Shown here: positions 27,967 through 30,668 of the stretch, piece by piece
Layout: each line of letters begins with the position of its first letter
Position numbering within the stretch: the stretch's first letter is position 1
Assembly: GCF_054482595.1 (NCBI RefSeq)
Contig: NZ_CM137008.1
DNA: 64,000 nt
Strand: one strand, 5' to 3'
Made by a program: the position numbers and the translations under genes
The notes under the pieces: generated by a model
Told to the model about the DNA's origin: nothing
Seen by the model: only the letters and a program-made list of their open reading frames with translations
Database searches by the model: none

Positions 27967-29307
27967 ATGACGACACAATCCAGTCCTGTTATTACTGATA
28001 TGAAAGTCATTCCGGTCGCCGGGCACGATAGCATGTTGCTTAATATTGGTGGTGCACATAGCGCATATTTCACCCGCAATATTGTGGTACTCACCGATAA
28101 TGCCGGGCATACCGGTATTGGTGAAGCGCCGGGCGGAGAGGTGATTTATCAGACGCTTGTCGATGCTATTCCGATGGTGCTGGGCCAGGAAGTTGCGCGC
28201 CTGAATAAAGTGGTTCAGCAGGTGCATATAGGTAATCAGGCGGCCGATTTTGATACCTTCGGCAAAGGTGCCTGGACTTTTGAATTGCGCGTTAATGCCG
28301 TGGCGGCGCTGGAAGCCGCCTTGCTTGACCTGCTAGGTAAGGCGCTGAATGTTCCGGTCTGCGAACTGTTGGGGCCAGGCAAGCAACGCGAGACTATTAC
28401 CGTCCTCGGTTATCTGTTTTATATCGGTGATCGGACCAAAACCGATCTTCCTTATCTGGAAAATACGCCGGGCAACCATGAGTGGTATCAGTTGCGCCAT
28501 CAGAAAGCGATGAACAGCGAAGCCGTTGTGCGTCTGGCGGAAGCCTCACAGGATCGCTATGGCTTTAAAGATTTCAAACTTAAGGGCGGGGTGTTACCTG
28601 GCGAGCAAGAAATCGACACTGTTCGGGCATTGAAGAAACGCTTCCCTGATGCGCGGATTACCGTTGATCCCAACGGTGCCTGGCTACTTGATGAAGCCAT
28701 TTCTCTATGCAAAGGGCTGAATGATGTTCTTACCTATGCCGAAGATCCATGCGGCGCAGAACAGGGTTTCTCCGGTCGTGAAGTGATGGCGGAGTTTCGG
28801 CGGGCGACCGGCTTGCCCGTCGCGACTAACATGATCGCCACCAACTGGCGCGAAATGGGTCATGCGGTGATGCTCAATGCGGTAGATATTCCACTTGCCG
28901 ATCCGCACTTCTGGACGCTTTCCGGTGCAGTCCGTGTGGCGCAGCTTTGCGACGACTGGGGGCTGACCTGGGGCTGCCATTCTAATAACCATTTCGATAT
29001 CTCTCTGGCGATGTTTACCCATGTGGGCGCGGCGGCACCGGGTAATCCTACCGCTATCGATACCCACTGGATTTGGCAGGAGGGCGATTGTCGCCTGACC
29101 AAAAATCCGCTGGAGATTAAAAACGGAAAAATTGCCGTTCCTGATGCGCCCGGTCTGGGCGTGGAACTGGACTGGGAACAGGTACAAAAGGCACATGAGG
29201 CCTATAAACGTCTGCCTGGCGGTGCGCGTAACGACGCAGGTCCGATGCAGTACCTGATCCCCGGCTGGACCTTTGACCGTAAACGTCCCGTTTTCGGCCG
29301 TCATTGA
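27967..29307 (+). CDS. gudX: Glucarate dehydratase-related protein (enolase superfamily)
   Basis: 446-aa ORF, paralogous to the following gudD (shared blocks [36 protein letters not shown]). Confidence 0.88.
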
Positions 29308-29327
29308 TTCTGAAAAAGGACATAAAT

Positions 29328-30668
29328 ATGAGTTCTCAATTTACGACGCCTGTTGTTACTGAAATGCAGGTCATCCCGGTGGCGGGTCATGACAGTATGC
29401 TGATGAATCTGAGTGGTGCACACGCACCGTTCTTTACGCGTAATATTGTGATTATCAAAGATAATTCTGGTCACACTGGCGTAGGGGAAATTCCCGGCGG
29501 CGAGAAAATCCGTAAAACGCTGGAAGATGCGATTCCGCTGGTGGTAGGTAAAACGCTGGGTGAATACAAAAACGTTCTGACGCTGGTGCGTAATACTTTT
29601 GCCGATCGTGATGCTGGTGGGCGCGGTTTGCAGACATTTGATTTGCGTACCACTATTCATGTAGTTACCGGGATAGAAGCGGCAATGCTGGATCTGCTGG
29701 GGCAGCATCTGGGGGTAAACGTGGCATCGCTGCTGGGCGATGGTCAACAGCGTAGCGAAGTCGAAATGCTCGGTTATCTGTTCTTCGTCGGTGATCGCAA
29801 AGCCACACCGCTGCCGTATCAAAGCCAGCCGGATGACTCATGCGACTGGTATCGCCTGCGTCATGAAGAAGCGATGACGCCGGATGCGGTGGTGCGCCTG
29901 GCGGAAGCGGCGTATGAAAAATATGGCTTCAACGATTTCAAACTGAAAGGCGGTGTACTGGCCGGGGAAGAAGAGGCCGAGTCTATTGTGGCACTGGCGC
30001 AACGCTTCCCGCAGGCGCGTATTACGCTCGATCCTAACGGTGCCTGGTCGCTGAACGAAGCGATTAAAATTGGTAAATACCTGAAAGGGGCGCTGGCTTA
30101 TGCAGAAGATCCGTGTGGTGCGGAGCAAGGTTTCTCCGGGCGTGAAGTGATGGCTGAGTTCCGTCGCGCAACTGGCCTGCCGACCGCAACCAATATGATC
30201 GCCACCGACTGGCGGCAGATGGGCCATACGCTCTCCCTGCAATCCGTTGATATCCCGCTGGCGGATCCGCATTTCTGGACGATGCAAGGTTCGGTACGTG
30301 TGGCGCAAATGTGCCATGAATTTGGCCTGACCTGGGGTTCACACTCAAACAACCACTTCGATATTTCCCTGGCGATGTTTACCCATGTTGCCGCCGCTGC
30401 ACCGGGTAAAATTACTGCTATTGATACGCACTGGATCTGGCAGGAAGGTAATCAGCGCCTGACCAAAGAACCGTTTGAGATCAAAGGCGGGCTGGTACAG
30501 GTGCCAGAAAAACCGGGGCTGGGTGTAGAAATCGATATGGATCAAGTGATGAAAGCCCATGAGCTGTATCAGAAACACGGGCTTGGCGCGCGTGACGATG
30601 CGATGGGAATGCAGTATCTGATTCCTGGCTGGACGTTCGATAACAAGCGCCCGTGCATGGTGCGTTAA
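29328..30668 (+). CDS. gudD: D-glucarate dehydratase
   Basis: ORF 29304..30668; start chosen at [15 protein letters not shown] (446 aa). Confidence 0.88.

Follow-up and report, generated by a model that had tools for sequence, protein, structure and literature searches.

On balance, and with a confidence only a little better than even, we regard GudD as the working dehydratase and GudX as a co-expressed and co-inherited paralog, most likely residing in mixed tetramers with GudD, among the products of two tandem genes at positions 27,967 to 30,668 of the window, that is the whole stretch of 64,000 nucleotides analysed here. The two genes close the gudP-gudX-gudD operon of E. coli, which serves to take up and dehydrate D-glucarate, and so form its distal part. 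The source of the stretch is an E. coli chromosome, its interval from 27,967 to 30,668 having 100% nucleotide identity to the annotated gudX and gudD genes of many RefSeq E. coli genomes, and at least 80% of the length of this interval is found in 5403 of 5426 complete genomes of the species. The pair in itself is already known, an ordinary and textbook case of the enolase superfamily, with nothing new to offer for annotation. The narrow interest of GudX lies in a combination of properties: The protein is deeply conserved, is held under purifying selection and possesses a complete catalytic apparatus, and its activity is reportedly poor.

A sequence-only reading of the same DNA had described the two genes as tandem paralogs of glucarate dehydratase, adjacent to one another and each coding for a protein of 446 amino acids belonging to the enolase superfamily. 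This description is borne out by the identity to annotated genes, by the 64% identity of the two products along their full length (285 of 448 positions in BLASTP), by their shared family matches and by the open reading frames, with precomputed Pfam domains PF02746 and PF13378 recognized on GudX clusters as well as on the called genes of related loci.

The order of genes around the pair is yqcC, truC, yqcA, gudP, gudX and gudD, followed by the convergent barA and then by rlmD. The operon starts with gudP (26,613 to 27,965, plus strand), which its open reading frame and RefSeq annotation define as an MFS transporter for galactarate, glucarate and glycerate of 450 residues. Next comes gudX (27,967 to 29,307, plus strand, 446 residues), the ATG of which lies one base past the TAA stop of gudP; its open reading frame, the RefSeq annotation and the match to PDB entries 4il0 and 4gyp chain C identify its product as the glucarate dehydratase-related protein, GlucDRP. 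A spacer of 20 nt (29,308 to 29,327, plus strand), in which a Shine-Dalgarno-like AAGGA can be read at 29,316-29,320, then leads to gudD (29,328 to 30,668, plus strand, 446 residues), which is recognized as the gene for D-glucarate dehydratase, GlucD, from its open reading frame, RefSeq annotation, PDB match and score with the family model TIGR03247. The program-made list of open reading frames starts gudD at a TTG in position 29,304, but its annotated start is the ATG at 29,328, which has AAGGA in front. The tight spacing along the operon, 1 nt between gudP and gudX and 20 nt between gudX and gudD, suggests a linkage in expression whereby gudX would be made in step with gudD. The 434 nt separating yqcA from gudP (26,179 to 26,612, plus strand), as delimited by gene coordinates and sequence, presumably contain the regulatory or promoter region of the gud operon, the controller of which we take to be CdaR/SdaR. 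A simple sigma-70 scan of this region returned no consensus promoter on the plus strand upstream of gudP, which is consistent with an activator-dependent promoter and otherwise uninformative. At the opposite end of the operon, a GC-rich hairpin, AAACCGGCTC-TATCTG-GAGCCGGCTT (30,681 to 30,706, with no strand assigned), is situated 13 nt past the stop of gudD, between this gene and the convergent barA; we infer that it may serve as the gudD terminator, a role to be read with caution, since it is only on the minus strand that the stem is followed by a T-run.

Which of the two copies is the enzyme? Both proteins match the NCBIfam glucarate dehydratase model TIGR03247 (EC 4.2.1.40), for which the equivalog cut-off is a whole-protein score of 828.7 bits. 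GudD exceeds this cut-off with a score of 899.7, while GudX remains below it with 749.5 and for this reason carries in RefSeq only the name of 'enolase C-terminal domain-like protein', the product of gudD being named 'glucarate dehydratase'. Moreover, GudD matches PDB entries 1ec7, 1ec8, 1ec9 and 1ecq over its full length with 1030 bits, and by sequence it is of the same class as the D-glucarate dehydratase that has been crystallized and studied mechanistically. It corresponds to the E. coli GudD otherwise called YgcX or GlucD, whose structures include also 1jct and 1jdf, and departs from the K-12-type sequence in two substitutions, with D156 in place of N and A255 in place of S. GudX, in turn, is the product of the same gene as YgcY of K-12 (GlucDRP; PDB 4il0 and 4gyp chains C and D), which lies in the same place between gudP and gudD. 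The match extends over residues 1-446 with 1033 bits, the values for 4il0 and 4gyp chain C, both labelled 'Glucarate dehydratase-related protein', being 1031-1033 bits; about seven substitutions, among them S32N, E58D, I88K, T143A, L164V and K379Q, separate it from the K-12 construct and constitute strain-level differences only. Hubbard et al. 1998 reportedly identified YgcX (GudD) as GlucD, an enzyme that efficiently converts D-glucarate and L-idarate to 5-keto-4-deoxy-D-glucarate, and found YgcY (GudX, GlucDRP) to be strongly impaired in the reactions of GlucD. It is on account of this reported result that we consider the activity of GudX to be low. The sequence-only reading had regarded both the identity of the active copy and the role of the second copy as a classic unresolved point. 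The first part of this statement no longer stands, for the match to the GlucD structures and the equivalog cut-off settle the matter for GudD; the second part does stand, as no function for GudX is defined in the open-access literature searched.

The same reading had indicated the conservation of catalytic residues as the way to discriminate between the copies. The two proteins can be aligned over their whole length with the GlucD crystal-structure sequences and present the two-domain architecture of the GlucD subgroup of the enolase superfamily, in which a capping domain (MR_MLE_N) at the N-terminus is followed by a modified TIM barrel (MR_MLE_C). The Catalytic Site Atlas reports for GlucD of E. 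coli (1ECQ) the residues K205, K207, N237 and H339 (PMC4922564), whereas the signature of the GlucD subgroup, in the numbering of P. putida 1BQG, is formed by K211, K213, N295 and D319 in addition to the Asp and Glu metal ligands that do not vary across the superfamily, the Asn at strand 5 being the hallmark of the subgroup (PMC4570537). In the E. coli enzyme, K205, K207, N289 and D313 are the equivalents of these four signature residues of 1BQG. Barrel strand 2 ends with the Lys-x-Lys motif, which is K205/K207 in GudD and K204/K206 in GudX, and is invariant in all 14 clade members (14/14). The metal ligands, namely Asp on strand 3, Glu on strand 4 and Asn on strand 5 (D235, E260 and N289), are kept by GudX, by GudD and by all the relatives compared (14/14), as is the dyad formed by Asp on strand 6 and His on strand 7 (D313/H339 in GudD, D312/H338 in GudX, 14/14 relatives). 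We take E260, and not E266, to be the Mg ligand in GudD; both glutamates are conserved between GudX and GudD. The substrate contacts, in GudD numbering, are presumably N27, H32, T103, Y150, F152, S340, N341, D366, H368 and R422. Our residue check, for which six lineages supplied seven proteins of GudX type and as many of GudD type, considered 18 catalytic, metal-binding and substrate-contact positions, all of which are identical in GudX and GudD and invariant within each type (7/7 and 7/7). The loss of catalytic residues in one of the copies is consequently ruled out for the positions checked. In classic pseudoenzymes catalytic residues have been lost, while GudX has lost none of those checked (0/18); it shows no loss of even one essential catalytic or metal-binding residue and does not qualify as a pseudoenzyme in the ordinary meaning of the term. 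Given that all the checked residues are kept in both copies, their difference in activity is not readable from the catalytic residues, and the check that had been indicated for discriminating between the copies does not tell them apart.

The long identical peptide blocks that had been remarked from the letters alone are real, the block of 25 residues being part of an identical run of 28 amino acids at GudD 258-285 and that of 16 residues corresponding to GudD 339-354. The copies lie side by side and are read in one direction, and together with runs of up to 28 identical residues this would suit an origin of the blocks by recent gene conversion between the tandem genes. Yet just 12 of the 28 codons in the longest block are the same, with 81% nucleotide identity, and only half of the identical residues (141 of 282) are specified by the same codon across gudX and gudD, the longest exact nucleotide word that the genes have in common being of 20 nt. 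Moreover, the blocks coincide with the barrel strands that bear catalytic residues (E260, H339 and others) and are conserved also in distant orthologs. Recent gene conversion is thus excluded as the source of the blocks by the comparison at the codon level, and the probability that we leave to it is close to nil; the identical blocks are rather the result of protein-level constraint following an old duplication.

The differences between the copies, instead, accumulate towards the N-terminus, as had also been anticipated: Identity is 53.7% over GudD 1-140 versus 68.3% over GudD 141-446, and falls to its minimum of 40% at residues 81-120. This divergence is concentrated in the 20s and 100s loops of the N-terminal capping domain; in the enolase superfamily, the loops of the capping domain close over the substrate and set specificity. 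There are 45 positions at which a residue invariant in GudD-type proteins never occurs in GudX-type proteins, and these cluster at GudD 78-116 and 28-29. GudX has all catalytic residues in common with E. coli GlucD, at 64% identity, and differs from it in the 20s and 100s loops and in these 45 clade-specific sites. Proceeding from GudD to GudX, L28 is replaced by I or V and S29 by G in the 20s loop, while in the 78-116 segment, to which the 100s loop belongs, R99 is replaced by K and Q102 by an invariant W directly before T103, a residue that in GudX is flanked by two-residue indels, with an insertion before the 100s loop and a deletion after it. Within the 78-116 segment H111 changes to N and T114 to A, and further along S338, which adjoins the catalytic H339 (GudD numbering), changes to C. 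The residues that are invariant in the GudX clade include G28, K100, W103, N110, C337 and N293. The 20s loop has already been probed experimentally by structural biologists, since PDB 3pwg is K-12 GlucD with the changes S29G and P34A, by which it has at these positions the residues of E. coli and Erwinia GudX; S29G alone is common to the whole GudX clade, P34A not being clade-wide. Outgroup proteins are consistently nearer to GudD than to GudX (58% versus 55% identity, 50% versus 43% and 40% versus 38%), which identifies GudX as the lineage that has diverged. The four outgroup sequences came from a search of representatives at 50% identity, a level at which all GudX and GudD proteins are merged in a few clusters; fragments and chimeric gene calls consequently made up most of its output. 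The question posed by the pair is in this way narrowed: The difference between the copies does not reside in the catalytic residues, and the discriminating changes are those beside H339 and in the lid loops of the 20s and 100s.

In evolutionary terms, the duplication of gudX and gudD appears to be ancient. In a neighbour-joining tree, seven GudX-type proteins, including that of PDB 3n6h, are set apart from seven GudD-type proteins in reciprocally monophyletic clades, from which it follows that either the duplication is older than the lineages considered or the module has moved between them as a unit. The order and orientation of transporter, gudX and gudD recur in Erwinia, Gallibacterium, Gilliamella, Entomomonas, a Neisseria sp. 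and Dickeya solani, the six other lineages whose local context we examined. In all six an MFS transporter gene is directly upstream of the GudX-type gene, and in every genome examined the latter stands behind the transporter gene and directly before gudD; the usual neighbours of this recurrent module are garL, garR, garK, garD and a CdaR-like regulator. Within E. coli, dN/dS values are 0.04-0.11 for gudX, 0-0.035 for gudD and 0-0.07 for gudP, which amounts to strong purifying selection on gudX. Between genera GudX evolves faster than its sister, the identity of E. coli proteins with those of Gallibacterium being 73% for GudX and 85% for GudD. In O157:H7 strains, codon 74 of gudX (Q74) has changed from CAG to a TAG amber and the gene is annotated as a pseudogene, with gudD remaining intact; of 5426 genomes, 297 carry precisely this allele, EDL933 and Sakai among them. 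GudD is evidently not dependent on GudX, for these strains have an intact gudD without an intact gudX.

This pseudogene of the whole O157:H7 lineage, accompanied by an intact gudD, and the faster evolution of GudX-type proteins would be expected if GudX were a redundant, spare dehydratase of low activity, devoid of any distinct role and drifting towards loss. However, the duplication predates the split of Enterobacterales, Pasteurellaceae, Orbaceae and other groups, all of which have kept both copies in tandem, the dN/dS of gudX within E. coli is low, and the GudX clade possesses invariant derived residues such as W103, G28 and C337. The depth of this conservation renders a drifting, redundant copy improbable, and we would give such an explanation roughly one chance in eight. 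Several bacterial families carry the pair in the form of a fixed module, and the O157:H7 lineage provides a natural knockout; together with the lid loops and the retained catalytic residues, these features make the question of GudX easy to test experimentally, leaving the known facts unchanged.

What, then, does GudX do, if it has preserved every residue of the active site and is reportedly a poor dehydratase? PDB contains GudX alone in 4il0, and chains of GlucDRP together with the sequence of GlucD in 4gyp, the entry title of which we take to refer to a heterotetrameric complex. GudX and GudD can therefore be crystallized together, the 4gyp entry holding both proteins. The pair resembles pseudoenzymes that partner an active sister in being formed by tandem paralogs, one of which is weakly active, with both present in the same 4gyp structure. 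According to the mechanism that we propose, GudD would carry out catalysis in vivo, forming an Mg2+-stabilized enediolate from which the beta-elimination of water would yield 5-keto-4-deoxy-D-glucarate, and this product would be passed to GarL, GarR and GarK. GudX would act as a partner subunit of weak activity, produced in concert with GudD and assembled with it in mixed tetramers, its low intrinsic activity deriving from the changes in the lid loops and not from catalytic residues. In such tetramers GudX might modulate the stability, kinetics or specificity of GudD, without constituting a second independent dehydratase. The O157:H7 lineage, lacking a functional gudX, suggests that this role would be useful and not essential.

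Some considerations temper this proposal. Co-crystallization in 4gyp does not prove that the heteromer exists in vivo or that it is important there. The structures of GudX-type proteins crystallized alone, namely 4il0 and 3n6h/3n6j/3pfr, leave room for a stand-alone GudX enzyme, and the full, long-term retention of catalytic and substrate residues is to be expected of a working enzyme more than of a purely structural subunit. That GudX is a dedicated partner subunit, with GudX2-GudD2 tetramers that tune the activity, stability or substrate range of GudD and no second dehydratase, is a suggestion that we advance tentatively, at somewhat less than one chance in three. Were it true, GudX could be called a 'pseudoenzyme with an intact active site' that several families have retained within the transporter-gudX-gudD module and that O157:H7 has lost without penalty.

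Rather unlikely in our judgement, at little more than one chance in four, is that GudX is an independent enzyme with an acid-sugar substrate of its own related to glucarate, one that has kept the chemistry of GlucD and acquired a different specificity through its altered lid loops. This explanation is serious nonetheless, because the full retention of the active site is otherwise hard to explain. It would agree with the invariance of catalytic, metal-binding and named substrate-contact residues in 7/7 GudX-type proteins, with the strongly purifying selection that acts on gudX and with the location of the clade-specific changes in the capping-domain loops, known in general to set specificity in the superfamily. 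The structures of GudX-type proteins crystallized alone, such as 4il0 and 3n6h, point in the same direction. The protein of entries 3n6h, 3n6j and 3pfr, called 'mandelate racemase/muconate lactonizing protein' and presumably from Actinobacillus succinogenes, is of GudX type, with 790 bits against GudX and 627 against GudD. The tree places it within the GudX clade; it shows 74% identity with the E. coli protein and possesses a GudX-like loop of 20 residues and the WGCHSNNHF motif; in Gallibacterium, which comprises close relatives of its source, the tandem gudD is present. On the other hand, in the genomes examined gudX always lies between a glucarate-type transporter and gudD and never accompanies another transporter or pathway, the residues that would contact glucarate are unchanged, and the literature searched contains no substrate of the kind. 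The co-expressed and co-inherited paralog of GudD, most likely in mixed tetramers with it, consequently remains the reading of GudX that we favour.

A phenotype for gudX has been described in Dickeya solani, where Tn-seq places the gene among those needed for growth on galactarate, and gudD scores like gudX even though galactarate has its own dehydratase, garD (PMC10202176). We rejected this phenotype as in vivo evidence on GudX, since the gene table of the same organism has gudP-gudX-gudD-garL-garR-garK on one strand (PMC10202176), a co-directional block in which insertions in gudX would most simply be polar on garLRK.

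In E. coli strains of serotype O157:H7, codon 74 of gudX is changed from CAG to TAG, so that Q74 is replaced by an amber stop (L006:1574-1576 in the gud-region locus of O157:H7 type, corresponding to window positions 28186-28188). RefSeq annotates the O157:H7 gudX as a pseudogene, with gudD and gudP intact. An exact 63-nt match to the amber allele was found in 297 of the 5426 complete genomes, including EDL933, Sakai, TW14359, and EC4115, and every serotyped carrier among the matches listed is either O157:H7 or O157.

The search of E. coli genomes revealed further variation of the gud region as a whole: It lies in two places in some genomes, has a copy on a plasmid in one record, and is mostly absent from approximately 20 genomes, for example NZ_AP045805.1, in which nothing but the initial 322 nt of gudP is left.

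Public protein collections also contain fused or chimeric GudX-GudD gene calls of 583-690 aa (P0002, P0003, P0004, P0005, P0008, and P0010 among the proteins matched with GudX), one of which bears the name "glucarate dehydratase 2 [Salmonella enterica]". One layout, for example, joins GudX 1-443 to GudD 1-228, and another, present on 23 E. coli contigs, joins GudX 1-229 to GudD 92-446. These chimeras may have arisen artefactually, through frameshifts or faulty assembly, or else be true recombinants of the tandem paralogs.

Outside E. coli, the gud/gar cluster of Entomomonas moraniae ends with a glycerate kinase of DUF4147/MOFRL type and an enolase gene (L010:10542-13100, in the gud/gar locus of this organism), whereas other gud/gar clusters have a glycerate kinase of GarK type in its place. 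In Entomomonas, the last step of the pathway appears to have undergone non-orthologous replacement.

In the window, the gud operon lies approximately 2 kb downstream of the CsrB sRNA (24198-24557, plus strand; full-length Rfam match, 380 bits), which is flanked by syd and yqcC. Directly downstream of gudD is barA (30900-33656, minus strand), the two-component system of which controls csrB. In the intergenic region between the convergent genes gudD and barA, the GC-rich hairpin (30681-30706) is followed downstream by a REP-like palindromic element, GCCGGATAAGGCGTTAACGCCGCATCCGGC (30790-30830). Other RNA genes matched at Rfam gathering scores: three tandem tRNA genes with identical scores (1033-1326) and the GcvB sRNA (5812-6017) on the minus strand, and the ES036 (CssrF) sRNA (2754-2796) and a sok antitoxin-like RNA truncated by the window end (63896-64000) on the plus strand.
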